Of a stretch of DNA of 37,706 nt, positions 7,214 through 34,036 are shown one piece after another. Numbering within the stretch: the first letter of the stretch is position 1; every line of letters begins with the position of its first letter. Under the pieces are notes generated by a model. The model had not been told where the DNA came from. It was given only the letters and a program-made list of their open reading frames with translations, and did not search any database. The stretch is from Micavibrio aeruginosavorus (GTDB lineage Bacteria; Pseudomonadota; Alphaproteobacteria; Micavibrionales; Micavibrionaceae): contig QFNK01000001.1 in NCBI GenBank assembly GCA_003240795.1, positions 1 through 37,706 of the forward strand, given 5' to 3'. A program made the translations under genes and the position numbers.

Positions 7214-8638
7214 TCATGTCATAAACAGTGTCGCCAGCCCGAGAAAGGCGAAAAAGCCGGTGACGTCGGTAATCGTCGTCAGGAATACGGAGGACGAAAT
7301 CGCCGGGTCCTGCCCGTATTTGTGGAGAAGAATCGGCACGCCCGCGCCGAAGATACCGGCGGTGATCAGGTTGATGATCATCGCCATCGCGATGACGAGG
7401 CCGAGCGTGACGTTGTGGAACCACAATCCCGCGATCAGGCCGACGGCACAGGCGAAAATACAGCCGTTGATAAAGCCGACAAGCCCTTCCTTGATAATCG
7501 CGCGGCGGGCGTTGGAGCTGGAGAGTTCGCGCATGGCGAGGGCGCGCACGGCGACGGTGAGTGCCTGCGTTCCGGCATTGCCGCCCATGCCTGCGACAAT
7601 CGGCATCAGCACGGCGAGGGCCACGACCTTTTCAATCGTCGCGCCGAATAGGGATACAACGCTTGCGGCCATGAAGGCGGTGACGAGATTGACGGCAAGC
7701 CAGCGGGAGCGGGACAGGCTGGTTTTCAATACCGCCTGATAAAGGTCGCTTTCCTCAACCCCGGCGAGTTTCAGGATATCTTCCCCGGCCTCTTCGTCGA
7801 TAACGTCGATGATGTCGTCGATGGTGATAACGCCGACAAGGCGGCCGTCTTCGTCCACGACAGGGGCGGAGCCAAGGTCGTCGCGGCGGAAGAGGTGGGC
7901 GACTTCCTCCTGGTCCATCGTGGCCGGAATGATGTGGACGTCGTCGAGCGTGAGTTCGTCGATTTTTTCGGAGCGTTTCGCGCGGACGAGGCGGTTGAGC
8001 GGAATTTCCCCCACCACATGATAATAAGGGTCGATGACGACGAGAAAGTTGAAGTCGTCGGGCAGCTCGTCGGCGGCGGCGCGCAGATAGTCGATGGTTT
8101 TACCGACCGTCCAGAATTGCGGGATCGCGACATATTCGCGTTGCATCAGACGTCCGGCGGATTCTTCCGGATAGCTCAGACCTTCTTCGAGGACAATACG
8201 GTCACGCGCGGAAAGTTTTTTCAGGATTTCCTTCTGGAAGACGGGGTCCAGATCCTCGATCAGATCCAGCGCGTCATCGGATTCCAGTTCGGAGACGATC
8301 TTCGCGACTGCCGCCGGCGGCATGTCGGACAGGATTTCCGCGCGCATCTGGTAATCAAGGTGCGCGTAAACATACGGGTCGATCAGGCCGCTGTATTTTT
8401 CGAGGAAGTCGTGGCGGTCCTGGCGGTCGATCTTGTGGAAGAGGTCGGCCATGTCCGCTTCGGACAGGTCGCCGAGCAGATCTTTCAGCTGCTCGGCATC
8501 TTCTTCATAGAGAGCATCAAGGATCGCCGCGATACGTTCGTCACTTAAGGAAAAGCCTTCTTCGGCCATTTCCTCGAGCAGTTCAGCCGTCGTTTCGGCT
8601 TCCCTTTCCCTCAGCGTGGAGGGCGACGTATCGTTCAT
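7214..8638 (-). CDS. mgtE: magnesium transporter MgtE
   Basis: 474 aa with an MgtE N-domain, a CBS pair and a C-terminal 5-TM domain (GNAGTQALTV, DPAISSSVFLTTITDVTGF). Confidence 0.95.
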   Translation of the reverse strand: MNDTSPSTLREREAETTAELLEEMAEEGFSLSDERIAAILDALYEEDAEQLKDLLGDLSEADMADLFHKIDRQDRHDFLEKYSGLIDPYVYAHLDYQMRAEILSDMPPAAVAKIVSELESDDALDLIEDLDPVFQKEILKKLSARDRIVLEEGLSYPEESAGRLMQREYVAIPQFWTVGKTIDYLRAAADELPDDFNFLVVIDPYYHVVGEIPLNRLVRAKRSEKIDELTLDDVHIIPATMDQEEVAHLFRRDDLGSAPVVDEDGRLVGVITIDDIIDVIDEEAGEDILKLAGVEESDLYQAVLKTSLSRSRWLAVNLVTAFMAASVVSLFGATIEKVVALAVLMPIVAGMGGNAGTQALTVAVRALAMRELSSSNARRAIIKEGLVGFINGCIFACAVGLIAGLWFHNVTLGLVIAMAMIINLITAGIFGAGVPILLHKYGQDPAISSSVFLTTITDVTGFFAFLGLATLFMT

Positions 8639-11713: not shown

Positions 11714-11800
11714 TGGTGCGGCCAAGAAGACTCGAACTTCCACGGGATTTCTCCCACAGCGACCTCAACGCTGCGCGTCTACCAATTCCGCCATGGCCGC
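11714..11800 (-). tRNA. tRNA-Leu (anticodon GAG), class II, CCA encoded
   Basis: Folded by hand. Acceptor GCGGCCA/UGGCCGC; 3-bp D stem; anticodon stem CAGCG/CGCUG with loop UUGAGGU; long variable arm GGGA..UCCC; T arm GGAAG-UUCGAGU-CUUCU; 3' ACCA. Confidence 0.95.
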
Positions 11801-11916: not shown

Positions 11917-12816
11917 TTAGGAAGGTAGGCTTATGCAGTAGCAGCCGGCGCGCGTAGGTTTCTGGCTGTTTATGTCGCAGAATCCGGCCTTTCTGTAACC
12001 GGACGTAATACTTGAACAAAGAATTTCTATCCGTTCAGGCGGGACGCAGTCTTTTAAAGATTCGCGAATATTGAAGCGAAGAAGCGACATATAAACAGCC
12101 GTATTTTGGACAAGTGTGTTTTGACGTATCGGCGTAACTTCCGCGAATTTTTCCGGTGCTGTCAAATTGTCGCCTCTGGCAATAAGTGTGGCAAGGATGG
12201 CTTTTAGGCAAGGAGGAAGTTTTACCGGATTTCCATCAACGGTCACAACGGCCTTTGAAAATGCCTGCTGCGGTGATTTTGTTATGACGAACGGCCCATA
12301 TGCCAGAATATTGTTATTAAACATTTTGGACAGGCGCTTTTCGGCCTGAATTTTTAACTCCTGACGGATTGATTTTTTTTCTTCTACCTGTTTTTTAAAT
12401 TCAACGCCTTTGGGATCCCACGTGTAAAGCCCTTTCAGCGTGATACATTTTGTGATCTTTTCCAAATCATCCAAAGGTATTTTATTTTCAAGCTGTGCTT
12501 TTATCCGTTTGCGCATATTGCAAAGATGGACGTGTGCAGGCTTTCGATTGTCTTTCGATATGGCTGTGTCAGGAATGGCTTGCTGTATCGCGTTGATTGT
12601 CAATTTCTTGCCTTGGAGGGCGATGAGCAGGGCTAACAACTTCTTTTCAGCGTGCCTAAGCTCTACAGCGTGTTCTCTGACATAAACCTGTCCATCGCCT
12701 GCTGCGATACTCTTATCCCCTTTCTCGATCCTGAAATCCTTATGAGAGATTGATTTTTCAAACAGAAACAGATTGTCCAAATCCACGGCGTTGGCCATGT
12801 GGAAGCTTTCATTCAT
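11917..12816 (-). CDS. receiver-less protein with two tandem OmpR/PhoB-type (trans_reg_C-like) winged-helix DNA-binding domains
   Basis: 299 aa. Repeat 1: VELRHAEKKLLALLIALQGKKLTINAI...HVHLCNMRKRIKAQL...TLKGLYTWD. Repeat 2: YGPFVI...VTVDGNPVKLPPCLKAILATLIARGDNLTAPEKF...VYMSLLRFNIRESL...ITSGYRKAGF. Sampled lines are about 37-42% GC, clearly below flanking DNA. Confidence 0.6.
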   Translation of the reverse strand: MNESFHMANAVDLDNLFLFEKSISHKDFRIEKGDKSIAAGDGQVYVREHAVELRHAEKKLLALLIALQGKKLTINAIQQAIPDTAISKDNRKPAHVHLCNMRKRIKAQLENKIPLDDLEKITKCITLKGLYTWDPKGVEFKKQVEEKKSIRQELKIQAEKRLSKMFNNNILAYGPFVITKSPQQAFSKAVVTVDGNPVKLPPCLKAILATLIARGDNLTAPEKFAEVTPIRQNTLVQNTAVYMSLLRFNIRESLKDCVPPERIEILCSSITSGYRKAGFCDINSQKPTRAGCYCISLPS

Positions 12817-12924
12817 TACACACCTTCATTTTTTTAGGCGGGTATACAGCGATAAGTTGCGAAAAGTCAACTTTTATATGGAAATATTTTGACGGTTTGC
12901 AATATTCGCCCGGCTTGCTACATC

Positions 12925-13554
12925 ATGGCTATGGAATTCAAAACGTCCGCAGGTCTGATCGATTACCCATCCGCTATCGAGTTTATGGAGCGGCGGGTGG
13001 CAGATATTCGTGCCGAAACAGCGGAAGAGTGTGTCTGGCTGCTGGAGCATCCGCCGCTTTATACGGGCGGGACGAGCGCCGACCCCGCCGATCTTCTGAA
13101 GGCGGAATTTCCCGTCTATGAGACAGGACGGGGCGGGGAATATACGTATCACGGCCCGGGACAGCGCGTGGCCTATGTGATGCTGGATCTTAAAAAGCGC
13201 CAACAAGCTCCTGATATTAAAAAATATGTATGGCAGTTGGAAGAATGGGTGATCCGTTCTTTGGCGCATTTTGGGGTCATAGGGGAGCGCCGTGAGGGGC
13301 GGGTCGGCATTTGGGTTGTCACGGCCGAAGGTGAAAAAAAGATTGCCGCGATCGGTGTGCGTATTCGTCACTGGGTGGCGTATCATGGTGTAGCCATCAA
13401 TGTCAGTCCCGATCTTTCCCATTTTGCGGGGATCGTGCCGTGCGGCATCCACGGTTTCGGCGTTACATCGATGGAGGATCTTCGAAAGCCTATATCTATG
13501 AATGATTTGGATTTGGTTCTTCGGGCGGAATTTGAAAATGTTTTTGGCGCATAA
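12925..13554 (+). CDS. lipB: octanoyltransferase (lipoyl(octanoyl) transferase)
   Basis: [19 protein letters not shown]...[16 protein letters not shown]...[12 protein letters not shown]...AAIGVRI is typical LipB. The track ORF starts at 12889, but the in-frame ATG at 12925 (MAMEFK) is more likely. Confidence 0.93.
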
Positions 13555-13574: not shown

Positions 13575-14216
13575 TCAGGCGAATTTTGCCTGCATGAACT
13601 GGCTGTATTTTTGGCGGTCCATATCCTGATAAGGACGGTTTTCCAGATTCAGATATGCGCCGGATTTTTCGGCAAATGTTTTTAATGACAGTCGTGCGTC
13701 ATTGAAATTGCTGAGCGAGTTTTTGATTTTTTTGGCGCAGTCCAATACGATCAGGCGGTCGAAATCATCCAGCATGTCCACATTTTCGAGCACGTCGCTT
13801 TCGACCCAGTGGCTTATTTCATGATAGCAGCGCTCAAGCGCTTCTCCGGATGTTTCCCGCTGTGCATCCAGCTGGGTGACTTTTGCAAGCTGGCTCGGTT
13901 TTGAAAGGAAGGCGCGGGAATATTCCTCAATACCCATGACGATGAGCGTTTCGGGTGCGGATTGTCTGTTAAACACGTTTTTCAGATAATTGTGAAAAAT
14001 CATGCCCGCTCCATTCCAGAGTTCGCCGCGCAGGCCGGTATGGCCGACAAGGCGGTTCTGTTTTTCCTCGGTGATCGGGAAGATTTTGGCGATGTCTATA
14101 ATGTTGGAAACTATAGCTTCGCTTTCGGCTTTTATAACGTCGTGCGCGCCGCCTTTTTTAACCAGCGGGACAAGCGCGGCCAGCATGTCTTCGCGCGTGG
14201 CGAATGCATCGGTCAT
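13575..14216 (-). CDS. hypothetical protein (orphan, lower GC)
   Basis: 213 aa. Strong SD GAGGGAGG 8-9 nt upstream of the ATG. The upstream gene has its own terminator, so this is an independent transcription unit. No family recognised. Confidence 0.6.
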   Translation of the reverse strand: MTDAFATREDMLAALVPLVKKGGAHDVIKAESEAIVSNIIDIAKIFPITEEKQNRLVGHTGLRGELWNGAGMIFHNYLKNVFNRQSAPETLIVMGIEEYSRAFLSKPSQLAKVTQLDAQRETSGEALERCYHEISHWVESDVLENVDMLDDFDRLIVLDCAKKIKNSLSNFNDARLSLKTFAEKSGAYLNLENRPYQDMDRQKYSQFMQAKFA

Positions 14217-17409: not shown

Positions 17410-18518
17410 GCGCGAAAAGGAACCATTCCTTTCTTCTAGCTGCGCTTCTTCTGTCCGGTTGCTGGACCCCGACGGGCAGGCAGGCGCCTGTCAATGTCGT
17501 CAATTACGGTACCCATGGCGGCGCTGGCACGACGGGGATGCACACGGTGCGTTCCGGCGATACGGTTTACACGGTGTCGCAGCGTTACAATCTGCCGCTA
17601 CGCGAGATTATTTCCCTCAACAGCCTTTCCGCGCCTTACAGGCTTTCAAGCGGTTTGCGCCTGAAACTGCCGCCGCCGCGCGAATACAGGGTGCAGCCGG
17701 GTGATACGCTCAACGGCCTGTCGCGCACATTCAATGTGAGCGTTAGCGAGATGGCTTCGCTCAACAATGTTCCATCGCCCTATGTGATCAAGCGCGGACA
17801 GGTTCTGCGCCTGCCAACGCCGCAGCCCGCGCTGGAAGCGGATCTTTCGCAAAAGGCGTCGTCCTCCGTCAATCTGCCCGACCGCGTCGCGCCATCGGGA
17901 TATGACGAAACGACCGCGCCCGCGGTCAAGGTTGCAAGTGTCGAGCGCGAGGTTTTGTCCGCGCCGCAGGACGCATCGAAGCAGGAGCCGGAAAAGGTTA
18001 TACCGGCTGCCGGACTTCCGGCGGCAGGGTTTCCGCCTCAGCCAGCGGCAAAGCCGGCATCCGGTGTTTTACAGCCGCCTGCCGCGAAGGTTGAAAAAGT
18101 ATCCGTGCCGCCGTCCGTCGCGCCGAAAATTCCGGCGCGCGCGGCGGCCGGGCGTTTCATGCGTCCTGTCGAGGGTAAGGTCATTTCCGGTTACGGGCCG
18201 AAGGCCGACGGGCTTCACAATGACGGGATCAATATCAAAGCGGCGCGCGGCACGGCCGTGCGCTCCGCCGAAAACGGTGTCGTTGCTTATGTCGGAAACG
18301 AGATGACGGGATACGGCAATCTGGTTCTTGTCCGTCACGCCGATGGGTGGATGACGGCCTATGCCCATATGGACAAAACGCTGGTCACCAAAGGCCAGAC
18401 GGTCAAGGCGGGGCAGAGTATCGGGACGGTAGGCTCGACAGGCGGCGTCGATTCTCCGCAGCTCCATTTCGAGGTCCGCAAAGGGACGAAAGCCGTTGAT
18501 CCGGCAAGCTATATCTAG
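17406..18518 (+). CDS. LysM-domain M23 metallopeptidase lipoprotein (NlpD-like)
   Basis: GTG start overlaps the pcm stop (GTGA). Lipobox LLLSGC, two LysM repeats (HTVRSGDTVYTVSQRY, YRVQPGDTLNGLSRTF), a Pro/Ala linker and a C-terminal M23 domain (GNLVLVRHADGWMTAYAH...PQLHFEV). Confidence 0.9.
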   Translation: MSAKRNHSFLLAALLLSGCWTPTGRQAPVNVVNYGTHGGAGTTGMHTVRSGDTVYTVSQRYNLPLREIISLNSLSAPYRLSSGLRLKLPPPREYRVQPGDTLNGLSRTFNVSVSEMASLNNVPSPYVIKRGQVLRLPTPQPALEADLSQKASSSVNLPDRVAPSGYDETTAPAVKVASVEREVLSAPQDASKQEPEKVIPAAGLPAAGFPPQPAAKPASGVLQPPAAKVEKVSVPPSVAPKIPARAAAGRFMRPVEGKVISGYGPKADGLHNDGINIKAARGTAVRSAENGVVAYVGNEMTGYGNLVLVRHADGWMTAYAHMDKTLVTKGQTVKAGQSIGTVGSTGGVDSPQLHFEVRKGTKAVDPASYI

Positions 18519-25525: not shown

Positions 25526-26152
25526 TTATGCCGCGATTTTCAGCGGGCCTTTTTCGTAGAGTTCGGCCACGTAGTCCCAGTTGATCAGATTATCAACGAA
25601 CGCTTCCAGATATTTCGGGCGCGCGTTGCGGTAGTCGATATAGTAGGAGTGTTCCCACACATCGACGCCGAGCAAGGCGGTCTTGCCATGAACGACCGGA
25701 TTTTCACCGTTCGGCGTTTTCGTAATTTCCAGTTTGCCGGATGCGTTGTCGAGTGTCAGCCACGCCCATCCGGAGCCGAATTGCGTCGTGCCGGCCTCGA
25801 CGAGTTTCTTTTTAAAGCCGTCGAATCCTTCGAGATCCGACTGGATCTGCGCTTCCAGCTTGCCGGGGATCTTGTTCCCGCCGCCGTTTTTCTTCATCCA
25901 GTTCCAGAAATGAATGTGGTTGTAATGCTGGCCCAGCTGGTTGAACAGGCCGGCCTTGGATTTGTCCTTGAAGGCGGCGACCATGGCTTCTTCGAGCGAG
26001 AGGTTTTCAAGGCCCGTTCCGGCGATCAGCTCGTTGCCCTTGTCGACATAGGCCTTGTGATGTTTGTCGTGGTGGAATTCCAGCGTTTCCGCGGACATAT
26101 AAGGTGCCAGCGCGTCATAGGAATAAGGCAATTCGGGAAGTGTAAATGCCAT
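25526..26152 (-). CDS. sodB: iron superoxide dismutase
   Basis: 208 aa. AFTLPELPYSYDALAPYMSAETLEFHHDKHH and DVWEHSYYIDYRNARPKY are Fe-type signatures. Confidence 0.95.
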   Translation of the reverse strand: MAFTLPELPYSYDALAPYMSAETLEFHHDKHHKAYVDKGNELIAGTGLENLSLEEAMVAAFKDKSKAGLFNQLGQHYNHIHFWNWMKKNGGGNKIPGKLEAQIQSDLEGFDGFKKKLVEAGTTQFGSGWAWLTLDNASGKLEITKTPNGENPVVHGKTALLGVDVWEHSYYIDYRNARPKYLEAFVDNLINWDYVAELYEKGPLKIAA

Positions 26153-26242
26153 AACAATATCTCCTTCTTTTCATCGGTGAATCAAAATGCTAACTGCTAA
26201 CCTATAGCTTTTGTTCAATATCTCAAGACGGTTCGGGCGGTC

Positions 26243-27037
26243 ATGACGGCATCTTTTATAGTAGACGAATTGAAGGCGGTTGATTACGACCGCTACCTGC
26301 TCGGTTTTTTCGTGCCGCGTGCGGTGAGGGAAGGGGTGTGGGCGCTTTACCTGCTCAACCATGAAATCGCGCGAACGCGGTCGATGGTGACGGATACCAA
26401 TCTCGGGCTGATCCGTCTTCAGTGGTGGCGGGATGAAATTGCGCGTTTGTATGACGGGCGGGGCTGTGGACAAATTCCGGTGTTATCCACACTGGCACCG
26501 TATGTCGAGCGCTACGGATTAAAGCAGGATTATTTTGACCAGATCATTTACGCACGCGAATTCGATCTGGAGGATCGTCCGCCATCGAATGAGGAGGGCC
26601 TATGTAATTATGCACGTTTTTTGGGCGAGCCGTTGAACAGGCTGGCGCTGCAAATGATTGGTGGAAATGTCGATGATGGCGAAGTGATTGATATATCAAG
26701 AAATTTTGAATTGATGAAACTCATACGCGGCGTGCCGTTTATGCTGAGTGAGGGGCGATTTTATTTGCCGCAAAATTGGGTGGATTCAAAGGGACTTAGT
26801 GTCGATAAACTCGTTAATAACAATGAGAAAAGTGCAATTGTTGATATGGTTGAAAGGGCTTCTTCGCTTGTCGTTCCGTATCGAAAGCCTGAAAATCGTT
26901 TCTTATGTGTTCAGCAAAAAATGACTGACATTTGGCTGAAAAAACTAAGAAAAAATGGATTTGACGTTTTTAATAGCCATAATCACGTGAATCCAAAATT
27001 TTTTGGATTACGTCTATTGTTTTCGCCGCGTGGCTGA
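26243..27037 (+). CDS. squalene/phytoene synthase family protein (NDUFAF6-like)
   Basis: 264 aa. DYDRYL...ALYLLNHEIARTR...RLQWWRDEI pattern of the non-catalytic alphaproteobacterial NDUFAF6-like subgroup. The 3' third is noticeably AT-richer. Confidence 0.8.
   Translation: MTASFIVDELKAVDYDRYLLGFFVPRAVREGVWALYLLNHEIARTRSMVTDTNLGLIRLQWWRDEIARLYDGRGCGQIPVLSTLAPYVERYGLKQDYFDQIIYAREFDLEDRPPSNEEGLCNYARFLGEPLNRLALQMIGGNVDDGEVIDISRNFELMKLIRGVPFMLSEGRFYLPQNWVDSKGLSVDKLVNNNEKSAIVDMVERASSLVVPYRKPENRFLCVQQKMTDIWLKKLRKNGFDVFNSHNHVNPKFFGLRLLFSPRG
26465..26491. repeat. 27-bp palindrome of two head-to-head DnaA-box 9-mers, copy A (TGTGGACAA-N9-TTATCCACA)
   Basis: Read directly: TGTGGACAA attccggtg TTATCCACA, inside the NDUFAF6-like CDS. 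Arms and 9-nt spacing are the same as at 32577-32603. Confidence 0.6.
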
Positions 27038-27341
27038 CGTCATCCAATTGTCTGATGCTTAAATTTTGTGGGAAGGCCAAAATTTTTGTAGCGACGCATT
27101 TTGGGTTCGCTCTGTACGTCTCTTAAAGGCATAAAATTCCATCTTTCGATACAGTGGGTCTTTGAGTTTTTGGCTGTGTCTGGTCGTAGCGAAAATACGC
27201 ATTTTAATGTCCAAAATGCCTTTGAAATCGCCATTTTAAGCGTTTTTGAAGATTTTTAAAAACCGGAAGCTGGCGGGGATTTTTTGCCGTTCCCGACACC
27301 ATTGCCGTACTTGGCACTTTGCAAGTTTGTGTGGCCTGTGC

Positions 27342-27364
27342 CATGCAAATGGGAAGTTTGCATG
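27342..27364. repeat. perfect 8-bp inverted repeat CATGCAAA-N7-TTTGCATG in the AT-rich spacer
   Basis: Read directly. It sits 4 nt upstream of the orphan plus-strand terminator hairpin. Confidence 0.5.
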
Positions 27365-27368
27365 CGCC

Positions 27369-27395
27369 ATTGTGCGAAAAAGCGCACAATTTTTT
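27369..27395 (+). terminator. plus-strand rho-independent terminator with no annotated plus-strand gene in front of it
   Basis: ATTGTGCG-aaaaag-CGCACAAT followed by TTTTT on the plus strand only. It is 330 nt downstream of the nearest plus-strand stop and abuts the stop codon of the convergent hydrolase gene. Confidence 0.55.
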
Positions 27396-28089
27396 ATGCT
27401 TTATATTTCGTTTCAGGATGGTTGTTTTCGGGGCGGTCAAATCGGCCTTGCGTTAAAAAATACGTGACCTGGGCGACTGATTTTTCAAGCAGAAACGAGT
27501 GCGACATATTGATCGTATAATGGTCTTTGATGCTCGGTATGCGCGTGCTTTCCAAGGATACTAGGCCGTCATGAACGCCTGTTTTCTTCATCGTGGACAG
27601 GAATATCGGATATTCCCATGCTCGCGTTCCCGCGATGACGCCGACCTCGATATTTTCGGGGATGATGTAATCAATTGTTTTTCTGTATTCCGTCGTCAGC
27701 TGCTGTCCTGACGGGCCGAAAAAACGGCGGTACAGGAATGTCGGGGCGAGAAGGTCTGCAACCTCGCTGCCGCGATAGGGCGGCGCTATCAACACGGCCC
27801 GCGACACATTCCCGATCATATTCTGCTGCATGATTTCGAGCGCAACAAGGCTGCCCATGGAATGGGTCACGAAATGTGTTTTTGCGTAGTCTTTTATATC
27901 TTTCGCGGCTATTTTCTGCGCGATAAAACTCGCGCAGTTTTCGATGTTTTCTTTCAGCGAAGGGTAGGCGATATTGAGCGTGTCAAAACCCGCGCGGCGC
28001 AGCCCGAATTCCAGCCACGCCATACGCAGCGGCGACATGCCTATTCCATGAAGGATAACGACGAGTTCGTTCCGCGGGGCTGCCTTCAT
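27394..28089 (-). CDS. alpha/beta-fold hydrolase (esterase/lipase-like)
   Basis: 231 aa. [10 protein letters not shown] and the nucleophile elbow THSMGS. The ATG overlaps the trmFO stop as ATGA. Confidence 0.8.
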
Positions 28090-29456
28090 GCTGCTTTTAT
28101 TTGATGAAACTGCGACAGCCAGCCGTCGATATCTTCGAGGGCGCGGATGGCCATCAGTTTTTTCTTCTCCCGCGACTTGTCCTTGCTCTTCACCCCGACC
28201 GGATCGCCTATCGGCGGGAACAGGCCGAAATTGACGTTCATCGGTTGGAACGTGTCGGCGTTTCCGCCGCCCGTGATGTGCGAGATGATCGCGCCCATGG
28301 CTGTGGTCGGCGGGGGCGGCGTCATTTCCACGCCCAGTCTTTCACATGCCGCAAAACGTCCGGCCATGATGCCGACCGCAGCAGATTCAACGTACCCTTC
28401 GCATCCGGTGATCTGCCCGGCAAAACGGAGACGTGGCATCGCCTTCATCTGCAACTTTCCGTTCAGAAGGCGGGGGGAATTGATGAAGGTGTTGCGGTGA
28501 AGTCCGCCCAGACGGGCGAATTCGGCATTCTGAAGGCCGGGGATGAGGCGCAGGACACGTGTCTGCTCCGCATACTTCATTTTTGTCTGGAAGCCGACCA
28601 TATTGTAGAGCGTGCCGAGGGCGTTGTCCTGCCGTAGCTGAACCACCGCATAAGGGCGACGGTCCGTCCTGGGATCCGTCAGTCCGACGGGTTTCATCGG
28701 GCCAAAGCGTAGCGTATCCACGCCGCGCCCTGCCATGATCTCTATCGGCATACAGCCTTCGAAGTAGGGGGTGGACGTTTCCCAATCCTTGAATTCGGTT
28801 TTTTCGGAGGCCAGCAGCTCGTTGATGAAACGCTCGTATTCCTCTTTGTTCATTGGACAATTTATGTAGTCCGAGCCTGTTCCGGCGGGGCCTGCCTTGT
28901 CGTAGCGCGACTGCATCCATGCCGTATCGAAATCAATACTGTCCTTGTAAACGATCGGCGCAATGGCGTCGAAGAAGGCGAGTTCGTCTTCGCCGCCGAT
29001 GGCGCGAATTTTTTCCGCGAGCTCCAGCGATGTCAAAGGGCCCGTCGCAATGATGACGGAATCCCAATCTTCCGGCGGAAAATCGACATGTTCGCGCCGT
29101 ACCGTAATCAGCGGGTGAGCGTTGATTTTGGCTGTAACTGCGTCCGAAAAGGCATCTCTATCCACAGCCAGCGCGCCGCCAGCCGGAACCGCCGCGCGGT
29201 CGCCTTCGGCCATGATCAGGGATTCGCTACGCCGCATCTCCTCATGCAGGAGGCCGACCGCGTTATAATAGGTATCGTCGGATCGGAATGAATTCGAACA
29301 GACCAGCTCCGCGCATCCCTGACCCTTGTGTGCGTCGGTCATGCGAACGGGGCGCATTTCGTGAAGAATAACGGGCACGCCCATGTTGGCGGCTTGCCAT
29401 GCGGCTTCGGACCCTGCGAGGCCCGCGCCGATAATGTGAATAGGTTTCAATGTCAT
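28086..29456 (-). CDS. trmFO: methylenetetrahydrofolate--tRNA-(uracil-5-)-methyltransferase TrmFO
   Basis: 456 aa. [19 protein letters not shown] motif, [12 protein letters not shown] and [14 protein letters not shown]. Confidence 0.96.
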
Positions 29457-29606
29457 GGAAGGCTTATCTCATTTTTCGTTTGTAAAATCCACCCCGTTTA
29501 TCCGGCATTTGCTTAGCAGTTTTTGGCGGTTTTTCGGGCTTTTTCGTATCGAAACCAAACGAGGTTTCAAGACGGTTCTTCGCCCGGATATCGGACCGTT
29601 TTCACG

Positions 29607-30914
29607 TTATTCCGCGAATTCTTCCATGTCCGGCACGCGGGAGAAGGCGATTTTCGTGCCGACATGACCGGCCAGCGTTTTCGGTGGAAGCCCAACGGAT
29701 ACGGTTTCCTTTTCATACTTTTTGTTCAGCCGTTCCATCGCGGCGGTAAGGGATTCCCGTTTCGAGAGCTTTTCCCTTACGTCCTCGATCGCCGTGTCGA
29801 ACAGATCGTCGGTGACGACATCCGGTTTTTGAAGGCGGCCGAGAATGACGGAGACTTTTTTGCATATCATCCAGTTCGGCATGTCTTCGGGAAGAACGCC
29901 GAAATATTCCACCGTCATCGCCTTCCACAAATCATCCAGATGCGACAGGAAGGTGAACGGGTCCTGCGCCGCATGGAATTGCACCTCCGCCGCCCATTTG
30001 CGCCCGTCCAGAAAGCGCACGCCAAGGGCGAGGGAACCCGCGCAGAAACCCTTTCGCCGCAGGCGTAATGTAGCTTTGTACAGCAACCGCCGCGCCATCA
30101 GCCGCGCTTTTTCCGGCGTGCGAAGATCGGGATCGAGCACGCGGCTATGCCCGACCATGCAGGAGCTTGTCTCCGGCGTTGGCATGTCATAGCCGCGCAG
30201 CCAGTACCAGAACCGCTCGCCGCCGACGCTGCTCCAGATTGCACGCGCCTGTTTTGGGGAAATGTTCCACAAATCCTCGATCGAGCGCACGCCGTTTTTG
30301 AATAGCCGCTCCTCCATCCGCACGTTGATACCGGGCAGGTCCTTTAACTCCAGATCCAGCAGCCTGCCGGGCAGATCGTCGGGGCGGAGCATGACAAGGC
30401 CGTCCGGCTTTTGCATGTCGGTTGCGAGTTTGGCCAGAAAGCTGTTCGGCGCGATGCCGATGGAGCAGTTGATGGCGGGGCCGACATCCCGCCATATCTG
30501 GCGCTTGATGGCCTGCGCGATCGCCCGCGCGTTTTCCGGGTTTCTCTGGCGGCCGATCAGTTCGCAATGGAATTCATCGATCGACCAGATTTTCTTCACC
30601 GGCAAATGCTTGTCCGTCGCTTCCAATATCCGGTGGTGGTAGCGCACATACATGTCGTGGCGGGCGAGGACGCAGACCAGATGCGGGCACATGCGTTTGG
30701 CATCATATATTTTCGTGCCCGTGCGTATGCCGTAAGCCTTGGCCTCATACGACGCCGCGATGGCGCAGGTCGCATCCGTCATCATCGGCACCACGGCAAC
30801 AGGCTTGCCGCGCAGGGCGGGGTTTTCATTCTGCTCCACGCTTGCGAAATAGCTGTTCAAATCGAGGAACAGGGCGGAGCAGTCGTTTTCCTGCGGGGTT
30901 TTGATACCGGACAT
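29607..30914 (-). CDS. Y-family DNA polymerase (ImpB/MucB/SamB family), apparently catalytically intact
   Basis: Start taken at the ATG at 30914 (MSGIKTPQ...). LFLDLNSYFASVEQ, SIDEFHCEL and GIAPNSFLAKLATDMQKPDG are present. The track ORF to 31271 is an over-extension through the divergent promoter. Confidence 0.88.
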   Translation of the reverse strand: MSGIKTPQENDCSALFLDLNSYFASVEQNENPALRGKPVAVVPMMTDATCAIAASYEAKAYGIRTGTKIYDAKRMCPHLVCVLARHDMYVRYHHRILEATDKHLPVKKIWSIDEFHCELIGRQRNPENARAIAQAIKRQIWRDVGPAINCSIGIAPNSFLAKLATDMQKPDGLVMLRPDDLPGRLLDLELKDLPGINVRMEERLFKNGVRSIEDLWNISPKQARAIWSSVGGERFWYWLRGYDMPTPETSSCMVGHSRVLDPDLRTPEKARLMARRLLYKATLRLRRKGFCAGSLALGVRFLDGRKWAAEVQFHAAQDPFTFLSHLDDLWKAMTVEYFGVLPEDMPNWMICKKVSVILGRLQKPDVVTDDLFDTAIEDVREKLSKRESLTAAMERLNKKYEKETVSVGLPPKTLAGHVGTKIAFSRVPDMEEFAE

Positions 30915-30916
30915 TT

Positions 30917-30931
30917 GTTCCCTTTTTGTTC
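30917..30931 (-). promoter_or_regulatory. alphaproteobacterial-type LexA (SOS) box, GAAC-N7-GAAC on the gene strand
   Basis: Plus strand GTTC ccttttt GTTC. On the gene strand the second GAAC ends 2 nt before the polymerase ATG, overlapping the likely RBS. Confidence 0.65.
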
Positions 30932-31025
30932 TTTTTACATTTGCCCGGTGACCAGCGCAAGCGGGAAAAGGATTTTCGTTAAGACTATCCGTGTTATCCT
31001 GTTCCTTGCGGGAAAAGGGGAAATC

Positions 31026-31484
31026 ATGATCCGTGAAAATCAGGCAGTCGGCGAAAGCCGTTTCAACATGTGGCGGGCGGTCGTTTCCATGATCCATGTC
31101 GACGGGGTCGTCACACCGCACGAGGTTAACTGCATTATCGAATTCACACGCGATATCCCGTTCAGCGATGAGCAGCGCCGGATAATCGACGCGGATATTT
31201 CGTCGCCGCAAATGGTAAAAGATTTGTTCGCGGCGATTTCCAGTCCGCGTGACCGCGAGTATTTCTTCCACCTTGCGCGTGCGGTTTCATGGTCCGACGG
31301 CGATCTTGATGAAAAGGAAGAGGCCCTGCTGCGGGAACTCGGCGTTATCGGGCAGGAGGGGGATGTCCTGCTTGTGGCGAACCGGTCATTTGACGAGATT
31401 TATATAGAGGGCCGCCAGGCCAATCAGGATGATCTGAACATCGGCAAACTGATCCGCCGTCTGATGGGCAAGAAAACGGCCTGA
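31026..31484 (+). CDS. TerB-like (tellurite-resistance TerB / DjlA_N fold) protein
   Basis: 152 aa from the ATG at 31026, with AAGGGGA upstream. MIHVDGVVTPHEVNCIIEF and WSDGDLDEKEEALLREL repeats are typical of the TerB fold. Confidence 0.7.
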   Translation: MIRENQAVGESRFNMWRAVVSMIHVDGVVTPHEVNCIIEFTRDIPFSDEQRRIIDADISSPQMVKDLFAAISSPRDREYFFHLARAVSWSDGDLDEKEEALLRELGVIGQEGDVLLVANRSFDEIYIEGRQANQDDLNIGKLIRRLMGKKTA

Positions 31485-32183: not shown

Positions 32184-32501
32184 CTACAGGCCTTTTTTCG
32201 GCACGTAGGTGCAGGGAATGACCGCCTTGCCGAAGGTGAGGGTGGCATCGATGCCCTTGTTCCAGAAGGTCACCGTGCTGTTGCCGTATTGGGCCCCGCT
32301 GGCCGAAACCTGACGTTCCAGCGCGTAGGACTTGCCCGCATAGGTCAGTTTGGCTTCATCCGGAGAGTAGAAGGTAATCTGCGCCGGCTGGCCGCCACAG
32401 GAAAGCGGGCGCGGTGTGACGACCGGACGTTTCTTCGGCGGCGACGCGCAGGAGGCGAGGGTCAGGGCAATCAGAAGGCAGGCGGCTATTCTGGACATCA
32501 C
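32184..32501 (-). CDS. mliC: MliC-family lipoprotein (membrane-bound inhibitor of C-type lysozyme)
   Basis: 105 aa. Lipobox LTLASC. SASGAQY matches the SxSGAxY motif, and FWNKG resembles the YxxxTKG motif of MliC/PliC. The GTG at 32501 (or ATG at 32498) abuts the gcvPB stop, and the AAGGGA RBS lies inside the last gcvPB codons. Confidence 0.75.
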   Translation of the reverse strand: MMSRIAACLLIALTLASCASPPKKRPVVTPRPLSCGGQPAQITFYSPDEAKLTYAGKSYALERQVSASGAQYGNSTVTFWNKGIDATLTFGKAVIPCTYVPKKGL

Positions 32502-34036
32502 TATTGCTGTCCCTTCCAGCGCAGTTTCGGTTCACGCGCGGCGCGAACTTCGTCGAGGCGGCGGGTGGGGGCGCTCTGTGGATAACTATGAAACTTATCC
32601 ACATCGCCGTTTCGGACATCCGACGCGATTTTCTTCATGACCCGGATGAACCGGTCCAGCGCGTCCTTGCTTTCCGTCTCCGTCGGTTCGATCAGCATGG
32701 CGCCCTGAACCACCAGCGGGAAGTAAACCGTCATGGGGTGGAAGCCATGTTCGACAAGCGCCTTGGCAATATCAAGCGTGGTCACGCCGACATCTTTCTG
32801 AACCTTGTCGGTCAGCAGGCATTCATGCATGCAGGGGCCGTCAAACGGTACGTGATAGTCCTGTTTTAATTGGGAAAGTATGTAATTGGCGTTCAGGACG
32901 GCATCCTCAGATACTTGGCGCAGCCCGTCCGAGCCGTGGGACATCATGTAGGTCAGCGCGCGGATGTGCATGCCGAACTGTCCGGCGAAACCCTTGATGC
33001 GTCCACAGTTCATCGGGCGGTCCGTTTCGGCTTCTAAACGATACGTATCATTATTATGAATAACGATTGGTTTTGGCATGTATTGCGCCAGTTCCTCGGT
33101 CACGCAAATAGGGCCTGAACCGGGGCCGCCACCGCCGTGGGGTGTGGAAAAGGTCTTGTGTAGATTAATGTGCATGACGTCCACGCCGAAGTCGGCAGGC
33201 CGGATTTTGCCGACCAAGGCGTTGAAATTTGCCCCGTCACAATAGAAATAACCGCCCGCGTCATGGAGCAGTCTGGAGATTTCTTGAATATCGCGTTCGA
33301 AAAGACCGCAGGTATTCGGGTTCGTAACCATCATGCCCGCGACATCGTGGCCATCGCCCAGGGCGGTTTTGAAAGCGTCAAGCGTGACGCGGCCGCCTTC
33401 ACGGGTAGGGATGACACGCAGGTCAAAACCGCACATGGCGGCGGTCGCGGGGTTTGTGCCGTGGGCAGAGTCGGGGACAAGAATCACTTTTTTGTGCGTG
33501 TTGCCCTTCGCCTGATGGGCGCGGGCAATGGTCATGATGCCGGCCAGTTCGCCGTGCGCGCCGGCGGCTGGTGTCAGACAGACGCCGGGCAGGCCGGTCA
33601 ATTCGCCGAGCCATTGCTGCAGCTCATGCATCAGTTGCAACGCCCCTTGCACCGTCGAGGCAGGCTGAAGCGGGTGGATATGCGCGAAACCGGGCAGGCG
33701 CGCCATCTTCTCGTTCAGGCGCGGATTGTGCTTCATCGTGCAGGAGCCAAGCGGGAAGAAGCCGGAATCGATGGAATAATTCTTGGTCGAAAGGCGCACA
33801 AAATGACGCACCACCTGCGGCTCGCTCACCTGTGGCAGGCCGATATCGCCGCGGGCGTTCTGGCCTGTACGAAGGGGCGTGTTCTTTGGCTGTGTCATGT
33901 CCACACCGGAATGGTCGGAACGCTGTTTCTCCCATAGCAGGTTTTCATGGTAGTGCAGACCGCGATTCAGATCGGCCGCTTGAAACGTGTCCACATCCTG
34001 CGTGTCAGAAGGTGATTTGAGAGAAGCGTTGGTCAT
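32501..34036 (-). CDS. gcvPB: glycine dehydrogenase (decarboxylating) subunit 2
   Basis: 511 aa. LGSCTMKHNP and the PLP-lysine context NLHKTFSTPHGGGGPG. Confidence 0.97.
   Translation of the reverse strand: MTNASLKSPSDTQDVDTFQAADLNRGLHYHENLLWEKQRSDHSGVDMTQPKNTPLRTGQNARGDIGLPQVSEPQVVRHFVRLSTKNYSIDSGFFPLGSCTMKHNPRLNEKMARLPGFAHIHPLQPASTVQGALQLMHELQQWLGELTGLPGVCLTPAAGAHGELAGIMTIARAHQAKGNTHKKVILVPDSAHGTNPATAAMCGFDLRVIPTREGGRVTLDAFKTALGDGHDVAGMMVTNPNTCGLFERDIQEISRLLHDAGGYFYCDGANFNALVGKIRPADFGVDVMHINLHKTFSTPHGGGGPGSGPICVTEELAQYMPKPIVIHNNDTYRLEAETDRPMNCGRIKGFAGQFGMHIRALTYMMSHGSDGLRQVSEDAVLNANYILSQLKQDYHVPFDGPCMHECLLTDKVQKDVGVTTLDIAKALVEHGFHPMTVYFPLVVQGAMLIEPTETESKDALDRFIRVMKKIASDVRNGDVDKFHSYPQSAPTRRLDEVRAAREPKLRWKGQQ
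32577..32603. repeat. 27-bp perfect palindrome of two head-to-head consensus DnaA boxes, copy B (TGTGGATAA-N9-TTATCCACA)
   Basis: Read directly: TGTGGATAA ctatgaaac TTATCCACA, inside the 3' end of gcvPB and about 75 nt upstream of the mliC-like start. Confidence 0.65.

Follow-up and report, generated by a model that had tools for sequence, protein, structure and literature searches.

Two protein-coding genes in a 37,706-nt stretch of Micavibrio aeruginosavorus DNA (hereafter the window, meaning the whole stretch that was analysed) each contain an inverted pair of 9-mers that fits the DnaA box, and comparison with orthologues indicates that both pairs are under selection at the DNA level, each arm being conserved in its own right at synonymous positions and even where a codon was replaced. 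Given this selection, the sites are most likely DnaA-binding sites away from the origin; the reading that we prefer, to which we assign a probability of roughly 0.55, is that they would be DnaA-bound pairs with an operator or roadblock role.

Away from the origin, DnaA boxes serve as titration sites, make up datA and DARS, and act as operators; to our knowledge, work on E. coli and B. subtilis, and on non-coding DNA, has supplied almost everything known about them. In the present case, two protein-coding genes of a little-studied lineage of predatory Alphaproteobacteria each contain a consensus box pair that has persisted for long, and rare codons and amino-acid replacements have been part of the price.

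Sequence and position of the two box pairs

Table 1. Positions in the window of the palindromic pairs, their component boxes, and the host and adjoining genes.
Feature	Positions	Strand	Description
Site 1	32577..32603	.	TGTGGATAA ctatgaaac TTATCCACA; two 9/9 DnaA-box 9-mers, inverted; inside gcvPB 3' end
Site 1 minus-strand box	32577..32585	-	TTATCCACA on minus strand; gcvPB codons gaT GTG GAT AAg
Site 1 plus-strand box	32595..32603	+	TTATCCACA; gcvPB codons agT TAT CCA CAg (minus-strand reading)
Site 2	26465..26491	.	TGTGGACAA attccggtg TTATCCACA; inside SQS_PSY-family ORF
Site 2 strong box	26483..26491	+	TTATCCACA; codons TTA TCC ACA = L-S-T
Site 2 weaker box	26465..26473	-	TTGTCCACA on minus strand
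gcvPB (glycine dehydrogenase subunit 2), host of site 1	32501..34036	-	Pfam GDC-P, GcvP2_C, Aminotran_5
MliC-domain ORF, directly downstream of gcvPB	32184..32501	-	Pfam MliC, E = 1.7e-14
SQS_PSY-family (squalene/phytoene-synthase-family) ORF, host of site 2	26243..27037	+	Pfam SQS_PSY, E = 2.7e-33
Fe/Mn superoxide dismutase gene (sodB-like), divergent from SQS_PSY ORF	25526..26152	-	Pfam Sod_Fe_N, Sod_Fe_C

The arms of site 1 are perfect reverse complements of each other, and those of site 2 match them at 17 of 18 positions; both sites, with their sequences, their coordinates and this degree of matching, had been described in the original prediction and were confirmed throughout. Each palindrome (Table 1) is 27 bp long, with box centres 18 bp apart, a distance that is also compatible with another dimeric regulator. 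Site 1 occupies codons D-V-D-K-F-H-S-Y-P-Q-S of gcvPB, and 76 nt separate it from the GTG start of the MliC-domain ORF further downstream; site 2 occupies codons C-G-Q-I-P-V-L-S-T of the SQS_PSY-family ORF, 222 nt past its start and 313 nt upstream of the start of the divergent sodB-like gene. The arms are read in different frames at the two sites and encode different peptides.

The recurrence of the pair in the window is not due to chance. At up to three mismatches, sites 1 and 2 are the only matches to the pair in the window, and none of 100 dinucleotide shuffles of the window yielded any match. When codons were redrawn according to usage in the window, with the proteins of all 30 ORFs kept fixed, 0 of 300 randomisations produced a site with one mismatch or none, against the two observed; shuffles and codon randomisations thus bear out the earlier estimate that a chance recurrence was unlikely. 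Perfect boxes number three in the window against 0.18 expected from base composition, and no perfect DnaA box was found in the window beyond sites 1 and 2.

The arms fit a DnaA box in sequence, in the positions where variation is tolerated, and in N9 geometry, which upholds the DnaA-box-like character originally proposed for them. Three of the four window arms match TTATCCACA and TT[A/T]TNCACA at 9/9 positions, the fourth being the weaker box of site 2. In a set of 34 orthologous arms, fixation reaches 94% or more at position 2 and at each of positions 4-8 (T2 and C5 in 34/34; C6, A7 and C8 in 33/34 each; T4 in 32/34), and the variation falls on position 3 (9/34), position 9 (5/34) and position 1 (4/34). 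The published consensus TT[A/T]TNCACA has a strict core at positions 4-8 (PMC6868365, PMC5043019); the clade's own box is presumed to follow this consensus, given that DnaA domain IV is generally conserved.

In the genome collection, the pattern TGTGGAYAA-N9-TTRTCCACA was found at no fewer than 120 loci; among those listed, 86 are clusters of four or more boxes in 500 nt, and at 35 dnaA lies no more than 8 kb away. Inverted N9 pairs are common in dnaA-adjacent box clusters of many phyla, and the same pair is present in one alphaproteobacterial iteron-type plasmid origin; no Micavibrio is among the matches listed. After removal of the seed pairs, the listed loci contain 5 other inverted box pairs at N9 and 10 at N30-31, counts too small for an N9 preference to be claimed. 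No dnaA was found among 92 loci, namely the window and L121-L211, and a search of the literature on Micavibrio DnaA or its replication origin found nothing relevant.

Conservation of the pairs among syntenic relatives

Each of the 10 syntenic genomes sampled carries site 2 at the corresponding place in the gene, with 1-4 arm mismatches; the relatives compared are related to one another phylogenetically, and these conservation counts, like those for site 1, are not independent. The SQS_PSY-family protein itself shows 48-63% identity among relatives. The 9-mer TTATCCACA of site 2 is the most conserved 9-nt window of the gene, with a pairwise identity of 0.968 vs. a gene mean of 0.61, and this strong box is perfect in 9/10 genomes; its Leu codon TTA has a usage of 3.3%. 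The weaker box has an invariant GTGGA core and differs between relatives at positions 1, 3, and 9. The codon GGA (usage 16%) is likewise invariant, and the codon before it alternates between Cys TGT and Gly GGT, with GT retained. The centre of the site, attccggtg, varies among relatives.

The arms of site 1 were compared in the 11 genomes that share the peptide DVDKFH.YPQ; mismatches number none in six genomes, one in two, two in one, and three in two. Among 507 nine-codon windows of gcvPB, the site 1 window ranks top for synonymous codon identity (0.81 vs. a mean of 0.53), and the codons that flank the site vary freely. GTG (usage 0.37) and CCA (usage 0.13) are each kept in 9/10 sequences, and GAT (usage 0.51) in 8/10. 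At the Ser/Ala/Asn position the codon switches among AGT, GCT, TCT, and AAT; its third-position T, the first T of the box, is retained, and T-ending Ser/Ala codons have a usage of about 0.1. Taken over both sites, rare codons are retained wherever the motif requires them, amid neighbouring synonymous sites that are saturated. The alignment of orthologues, which had been named as a check on the original prediction, found both sites conserved at synonymous positions in syntenic relatives, and the objection that the motif might lack conservation falls away.

The spacer behaves differently from the arms. The spacer codons AAG TTT CAT of site 1 are invariant in 10 sequences; the loci L213 and L122 carry the same codons but lack the palindrome, and in L216 the arms match at 16/18 positions while 3/3 synonymous sites of the spacer differ. 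The spacer is therefore not treated as part of the element. The spacers vary. As suggested earlier, the element behaves like two protein half-sites separated by a free spacer, rather than a duplicated block of DNA.

Site 1 is confined to a sub-clade, and its origin coincides with the amino-acid replacements that lead from DTEKFH.YP[QV] to DVDKFH.YPQ; relatives without the site have TTC, GCC, and CCG at the corresponding codons. In this comparison site 1 is younger than site 2 and was built via amino-acid replacements. The 27-nt stretch aligns with all orthologues residue by residue, without an indel. A metagenome scan for further relatives of gcvPB returned mostly distant ones, the close relatives being L121 and L144 only.

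Comparison with described DnaA-box systems

The boxes of the window pairs have the same mutual orientation, and the same 9-mer, as R1 (TGTGGATAA) and R4 (TTATCCACA) of E. coli oriC; an orientation of the R1/R4 type has been named tail-to-tail or outward (PMC5043019). A stretch of about 170 bp that contains arrays of weak sites lies between R1 and R4, whereas the boxes of the window pairs are separated by a 9-bp spacer. An origin of the oriC type was rejected for the window sites: each has two boxes, both are located in ORFs, no AT-rich unwinding element is present, and no dnaA is nearby. GC skew is positive throughout the window, with no switch.

The core of DARS, a non-origin chromosomal element, contains two oppositely oriented DnaA boxes, one of them of perfect consensus (PMC6868365); its boxes I and II are described as "head-to-head", TTATCCAC.-N5-TGTGGATAA (PMC6868365), and E. 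coli DARS1, read directly, has the sequence TTATCCACT attcc TGTGGATAA cca TGTGTATTA. DARS1 has the opposite orientation to the window pairs and a 5-bp spacer, as against 9 bp in the window; the "head-to-head" label of the original prediction is therefore unsupported, the window orientation being the reverse of that in DARS and the same as that of oriC R1/R4. DARS further needs a third box in tandem with box II and is non-coding, whereas the window sites are intragenic; no third box with at most one mismatch adjoins either site in the window. DARS was rejected as a match on account of orientation, spacer and third box; as far as we know, descriptions of it are limited to E. coli and related bacteria.

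At datA and at chromosomal titration sites, DnaA is retained by consensus boxes that lie elsewhere than in oriC (PMC12371093; PMC5742627). The datA locus is non-coding and combines about five boxes with an IHF site, whereas the window contains isolated intragenic pairs; a locus of the datA type was rejected, since neither site has more than two boxes and each lies in coding sequence.

In E. coli, DnaA sites in vivo are mainly promoter-proximal tandem boxes 2-3 bp apart, upstream of genes for nucleotide, replication, repair, and RNA metabolism (PMC11317965), and in this they differ from inverted intragenic N9 pairs; for guaB, a perfect box inside the gene has been reported (cited in PMC11317965). 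In B. subtilis, stable DnaA sites form intergenic clusters (PMC2533591). Boxes near or inside transcription units of the DnaA regulon, or acting as roadblocks, couple expression to the level of the initiator, as is proposed here. Compared to the DnaA operators of E. coli, the window pairs are inverted, have a 9-bp spacer, are intragenic, and are found by mliC, SQS_PSY, and sodB; the tandem operator of the E. coli type was rejected on account of inversion, N9 spacing and intragenic position. The binding sites parS and matS and those of SlmA and Noc are also short palindromes embedded in ORFs, in several copies per region; their consensus sequences are unrelated to the window arms, which equal the DnaA box.

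Possible binders and functions

The genes around the sites keep their arrangement among relatives. The GcvPB of the window has a 100% identical counterpart, named GcvPB, from a Micavibrio aeruginosavorus MAG; the order of gcvPB followed by the MliC-domain ORF, the first gene that transcription reaches beyond site 1, is common to all relatives, and the sodB-like gene adjoins the SQS_PSY ORF in every relative whose contig extends there. None of mliC, SQS_PSY, and sodB belongs to the classic DnaA regulon. Scans for promoters and terminators found no such signal next to either site. An internal promoter by site 1, one of the original suggestions, was not borne out: no sigma-70-like promoter was found near site 1, and the alignment from site 1 to the mliC start contains no conserved promoter-like block, its synonymous sites not being conserved.

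DnaA is probably the binder of both sites. Were DnaA to bind, a transcription-coupled role would stand at about even odds and a homeostatic role (titration, or a datA/DARS-like function) somewhat below even, with a small chance left for some other role; we infer both DnaA as the binder and the importance of DnaA occupancy to the cell. In the mechanism that we propose, each site would accommodate two DnaA molecules, with one domain IV on each 9-mer, and the tightly bound pair in the path of RNA polymerase would constitute an operator or roadblock set by DnaA occupancy. Site 2 would act at +222 of the SQS_PSY gene, beside sodB, and site 1 where the gcv operon ends, immediately ahead of mliC; expression of mliC, SQS_PSY, and sodB would be tied to the replication state of the predator, with the buffering of free DnaA as an inherent by-product. 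A Micavibrio-like predator switches between attack cells, which do not replicate, and attached cells, which do.

If DnaA binds, the sites would provide two handles on how replication initiation relates to gene expression or DnaA availability in a biphasic predatory life cycle, and the inverted N9 geometry would join the known paired binding modes of DnaA boxes; if another protein binds, the sites would define the operator of a regulator new to knowledge. Both sites can be altered by synonymous recoding.

The preferred operator or roadblock role has to be weighed against other uses of the same sites. DnaA might bind for the sake of homeostasis, with the pairs as a chromosomal sink or as a datA- or DARS-like element that times initiation, and not for local transcription; we consider this unlikely. 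The boxes are of consensus strength, two pairs fall within about 6 kb, and placement inside ORFs without a promoter signal would be expected of a position-independent function in a compact genome. There are hints of box turnover nearby: L206, where site 1 has decayed, has gained a perfect box 84 nt ahead of trmFO, and L210 has TTATCCATA at site 2 and TTATCCACG 10 nt downstream. The syntenic loci contain four extra perfect boxes against about 1.3 expected, an estimate from base composition, and for E. coli there is support for titration by boxes on the chromosome (PMC12371093). Yet one or two pairs would add little titration capacity, which is hard to reconcile with conservation over about 50% protein divergence; the orientation, 5-bp spacer and third tandem box of DARS are missing, as are the four to five or more boxes, IHF site and non-coding setting of datA. 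There is also a small chance that the two intragenic pairs form a dedicated DnaA-control locus, a functional analogue of datA/DARS with R1/R4 orientation in coding sequence, of which none has been described in Alphaproteobacteria as far as we know; such a locus would determine how much DnaA is free or active and, with it, the switch between attack phase and attached phase. It is improbable that the pairs are the operator of a different dimeric protein, whether a Fur-family or other global regulator or a chromosome organiser of the parS, matS or SBS type. The symmetric inverted repeat with its free spacer would suit such a protein, sodB adjoins site 2, and sites of chromosome-organisation proteins are typically intragenic and conserved at synonymous positions; moreover, GATAA-N9-TTATC is the outer frame of the 19-bp Fur box, which site 1 matches at 13/19 positions. 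The Fur box (GATAATGATAATCATTATC, with an AT-rich conserved centre) was nevertheless rejected, since the most conserved bases, TCCAC, are outside its frame and conservation reaches TCCACA, and since the centre at site 2 is GC-rich and variable. For any such regulator, a 9/9 DnaA consensus in three of four arms would be a very unlikely coincidence, a distance of 18 bp, or about 1.7 helical turns, from one half-site centre to the other would be atypical of compact helix-turn-helix dimers, and no regulator gene is linked in synteny among the relatives; the same N9 pair also occurs in real dnaA-adjacent clusters.

The pattern of substitutions bears on two further explanations that dispense with a DNA-binding protein. 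An RNA or DNA hairpin with a 9-bp stem and a 9-nt loop, acting in processing, pausing, attenuation, or as a cruciform, would account for the perfect complementarity at site 1, and it does appear in the minimum-free-energy fold of the gcvPB 3' end; the z-score of this fold is only -1.9. Compensatory changes number 0 in both alignments, and all changes disrupt pairing; of the pairs at site 2, one is never formed (0/7 sequences) and another fails in 5/7. Since changes never compensate across the arms, the element does not behave as an RNA hairpin, which we regard as very improbable; Rfam and tRNA scans of the window returned only a tRNA-Leu (11714-11800) and no Rfam match for the sites, a terminator-like tail is absent, and the two sites are transcribed from opposite strands and have unrelated loops. 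Hardly credible is the idea that the pairs are by-products of coding constraint or shared ancestry, or the ends of a mobile or recombining 6-kb block. The peptide GDVDKFHSYPQSAP is indeed conserved, and the conservation counts come from phylogenetically related genomes; yet codon randomisation never recreates the sites, and rare codons are held amid saturated synonymous neighbours. A terminal inverted repeat of a mobile element, a REP and a MITE were all rejected in view of the missing indel relative to orthologues and the variable DNA between the sites. The originally suggested pair of recombination or pausing sites bracketing a 6.1-kb block fares no better: the block measures 4.8-6.9 kb and differs in gene content among relatives, and L212 and L213 possess site 2 without site 1. 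Finally, the bases of the motif outlast changes in the amino acids that they encode, as at the Ser/Ala/Asn codon of site 1 and the Cys/Gly codon of site 2.

Sequence and conservation of the two inverted pairs

Sites 1 and 2 are the only matches in the window to the 18 arm positions when up to three mismatches are allowed, and the 37.7-kb window has three perfect TTATCCACA 9-mers (0.18 expected from base composition), all of which form arms of sites 1 and 2. The arm pattern was absent from all dinucleotide-preserving shuffles of the window (0/100, at most three mismatches); when the proteins of 30 ORFs were held fixed and codons redrawn according to the window's own usage, 300 trials yielded no site with at most one mismatch, against two observed. 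The original prediction that the recurrence of the pair is not due to chance therefore holds. The codons required by the motif are mostly unfavoured ones, both in gcvPB (site 1: gaT GTG GAT AAG TTT CAT AGT TAT CCA CAg; GTG 0.37, T-ending Ser/Ala about 0.1, CCA 0.13) and in the SQS_PSY ORF (site 2: TGT GGA CAA ATT CCG GTG TTA TCC ACA; Leu TTA 0.033, Gly GGA 0.16, Thr ACA 0.19, Cys TGT 0.215); the reading frame thus differs between the two sites, and the encoded peptides are unrelated. The start of an MliC-domain ORF lies 76 nt downstream of site 1, and this ORF overlaps the stop codon of gcvPB.

Coordinates of the sites, their host genes and further features of the window
Feature	Position	Strand	Remarks
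Site 1	32577-32603		TGTGGATAA ctatgaaac TTATCCACA, read from window sequence
Site 2	26465-26491		TGTGGACAA attccggtg TTATCCACA, read from window sequence
gcvPB, host of site 1	32501-34036	minus	site 1 within last 100 nt
SQS_PSY-family (squalene/phytoene-synthase-family) ORF, host of site 2	26243-27037	plus	site 2 222 nt into ORF
Fe/Mn superoxide dismutase gene, divergent	25526-26152		site 2 lies 313 nt upstream
TTTCGATACG copies	26877-26886, 28923-28932, 29545-29554	minus
TTTCGATACG copy, 1 mismatch	27144-27153	plus
TTTCGATACG copy, 1 mismatch	27185-27194	minus
Conserved block upstream of trmFO	~29460-29520	minus	trmFO start 29456
Longest dinB ORF	29607-31271	minus	554 aa from GTG start; relatives 432-435 aa
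tRNA-Leu(GAG)	11714-11800	minus	sole RNA gene detected in window
ORFs without Pfam match	11917-12816, 13575-14216
Lower G+C	12001-13000		0.44 (~0.56-0.60 elsewhere)
Lower G+C	26001-28000		0.465-0.474; spans SQS_PSY ORF and alpha/beta-hydrolase gene

Twelve contigs of other genomes (L201, L203, L205-L208, L210, L212, L213, L216, L121 and L144) were compared as syntenic and share the gene order gcvT-H-PA-PB, mliC, dinB, trmFO, SQS_PSY, sodB; the orthologue check envisaged with the original prediction found both sites kept at orthologous positions in syntenic relatives. The peptide DVDKFH.YPQ occurs in 11 genomes, with no arm mismatch at site 1 in six, one in two, two in one and three in two. The window containing site 1 ranks top for synonymous codon identity among 507 nine-codon windows of gcvPB (0.81 vs. 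a gene mean of 0.53), and the flanking codons, through to the mliC start, are freely variable. In 9/11 genomes the right-hand box keeps its first T, although the codon that supplies it, for Ser, Ala or Asn, may be AGT, GCT, TCT or AAT; L216 retains 16/18 arm positions, with all three synonymous positions of the spacer changed. The GcvPB proteins of L212 and L213 are 81-84% identical to that of the window and carry the peptide DTEKFH.YP[QV] with codons such as TTC, GCC and CCG; these two contigs have no site 1. The site is therefore younger and needed replacements of Thr by Val, Glu by Asp and Val by Gln. Among the 120 GcvPB clusters closest to the window's protein, 31 have both VDK and YPQ, 16 only YPQ, two only VDK, and 71 neither.

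Site 2 was found, with one to four arm mismatches, in all ten genomes that have the gene on the contig, where the SQS_PSY protein is 48-63% identical. No 9-nt window of the gene is more conserved than the TTATCCACA arm of this site (0.968 vs. a mean of 0.61), which outranks a Trp-Trp stretch, and in the other arm GTGGA is one of the gene's longest invariant runs; the codon preceding GGA is Cys TGT or Gly GGT, keeping GT either way, and the synonymous positions of the spacer vary. Within 1.29 Mb of related loci, all matches with at most three mismatches fall at these two orthologous positions; the more distant contigs L122, L123 and L174 (about 75% identity) have neither site. The sites are a real feature, selected at the DNA level.

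DnaA as the candidate binder

In both site alignments, compensatory changes were found at no base pair and every departure breaks pairing; in the seven sequences aligned for site 2, one pair never forms and another fails in five. An RNA hairpin is disfavoured by this lack of compensation and by the site 2 pair absent in 7/7 sequences (RNA fold z-score -1.9; no Rfam match at either site). Each arm is thus under its own constraint, as two protein half-sites would be, and with the spacer varying at the synonymous positions of site 2 and in L216 at site 1, the predicted protein-binding half-sites with a free spacer are supported. Of the nine positions in 34 orthologous arms, 2 and 4-8 are 94-100% fixed, and variation is found at position 3 (A, G or C), 9 and 1; this pattern fits the DnaA-box consensus TT[A/T]TNCACA with its strict 4-8 core (PMC6868365, PMC5043019).

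The pattern TGTGGAYAA-N9-TTRTCCACA occurs in at least 120 loci of the genome collection; among the 120 matches listed, 86 are accompanied by at least four DnaA boxes within 500 nt, a dnaA homologue occurs on the 8-kb stretch in 35, and isolated pairs number only 23. One match, in an Azospirillaceae bacterium (L058), reads TGTGGATAA aa TGTGGATAA ctgcaaaag TTATCCACA. This geometry is thus in use at places of expected DnaA binding, one of them in an alphaproteobacterium; with the seed pairs removed, too few counts remain to establish a preference for N9 among inverted pairs. We take the DnaA of the Micavibrio clade to read this consensus, given the general conservation of DnaA domain IV. In this predatory alphaproteobacterial clade the two sites most likely serve as non-origin binding sites for DnaA; consensus, position tolerance and N9 geometry support the predicted paired DnaA boxes as far as sequence evidence reaches.

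Another dimeric regulator, also proposed originally, is a possible but less likely binder; site 1 resembles a Fur box at 13/19 positions in our own alignment, yet that version fails, since the centre is variable and the conservation falls beyond the Fur frame. The proposal that the sites bracket the block between them as recombination or pausing sites is rejected because the interval varies in length (4.8-6.9 kb) and gene content and site 2 occurs without site 1.

Boxes of the DnaA-reactivating sequences (DARS) are described as "head-to-head" (PMC6868365); read directly, E. coli DARS1 is TTATCCACT-N5-TGTGGATAA-N3-TGTGTATTA, which differs from the window's pairs in its opposite mutual orientation, 5-bp spacer and third box, so that the "head-to-head" label originally given to the pair is inappropriate. 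The oriC boxes R1 (TGTGGATAA) and R4 (TTATCCACA) share the mutual orientation of sites 1 and 2 but lie about 170 bp apart. The in vivo preference of E. coli DnaA is for tandem boxes with 2-3 bp between them, located upstream of genes (PMC11317965), and stable DnaA sites of B. subtilis are intergenic clusters (PMC2533591). From these comparisons neither oriC, DARS, the DnaA-inactivating locus datA nor the E. coli operator type fits; the Micavibrio sites are a variant, namely isolated, intragenic, R1/R4-oriented pairs with a 9-bp spacer.

Among the matches listed, N9 pairs are widespread, occurring in clusters of DnaA boxes in Deinococcota, Poribacteria, Pasteurellaceae, Methylophaga, Lactobacillus, Bifidobacterium, Clostridia and others, and 14 isolated pairs lie within long open frames in other phyla; tandem boxes in L001-L120 show strong spacing peaks at 2-3, 12-14, 23-25 and 34-35 bp. 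L058 4770-5090, with at least six copies of ATGCCTCGTATCCCGAATGCCC, flanking DnaA boxes and an adjoining 345-aa ORF on the opposite strand, looks like an iteron-type plasmid origin.

Possible roles and neighbouring features

Transcription passes through both sites, at +222 of the SQS_PSY gene for site 2 and, for site 1, at the gcv operon's end shortly before mliC; promoter-like or terminator-like signals were found at neither. One possibility is a roadblock or operator dependent on DnaA occupancy, formed by a tightly bound pair of DnaA molecules; DnaA is a known transcription factor, and guaB is reported to contain an intragenic box (cited in PMC11317965). A second possibility is that they buffer DnaA itself or modulate it (PMC12371093). 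Weak hints in this direction come from L206, where site 1 has decayed (three mismatches) and a new perfect TGTGGATAA (7932-7940) lies 84 nt upstream of trmFO; from L210, with TTATCCATA at site 2 and TTATCCACG 10 nt downstream (~18285-18293); and from four extra perfect boxes in the syntenic loci, where about 1.3 are expected as estimated from base composition. The two roles are inseparable by sequence alone. A 4-mismatch N9 pair lies in the dinB/trmFO intergenic region of L207 (11062-11088); DnaA-box turnover is possible in L206, L207 and L210.

The remaining window is ordinary housekeeping DNA, with genes for S-adenosylhomocysteine hydrolase (AdoHcyase), a RapZ-like protein, a penicillin-binding protein (PBP), MgtE and malic enzyme, and with serS, secDF, a TerC-family gene, trmFO, dinB and gcvTHP; it contains no dnaA and no GC-skew switch, and no glycine riboswitch was detected upstream of gcvT at the Rfam threshold. 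Besides the long dinB ORF, two further annotation oddities were noted: one JGI protein of 610 aa (P0017) is called as a GcvPB-MliC fusion, and in L208 (8814-9272) and L209 an inserted acetyltransferase gene separates gcvPA from gcvPB.

A second recurrent motif, TTTCGATACG, has nine matches with at most one mismatch (3.5 expected); its copy inside the SQS_PSY ORF, CGTATCGAAA, is among the gene's most conserved 9-mers. In relatives, the dinB/trmFO intergenic region has a single copy or two copies spaced by about 35 nt, upstream of trmFO in L203, L205 and L210. A non-coding block, GGTGGATTTTAC...AAAAATGA(G/C)ATAA, is kept just upstream of trmFO in all relatives (L201-L210) and is probably the trmFO promoter.
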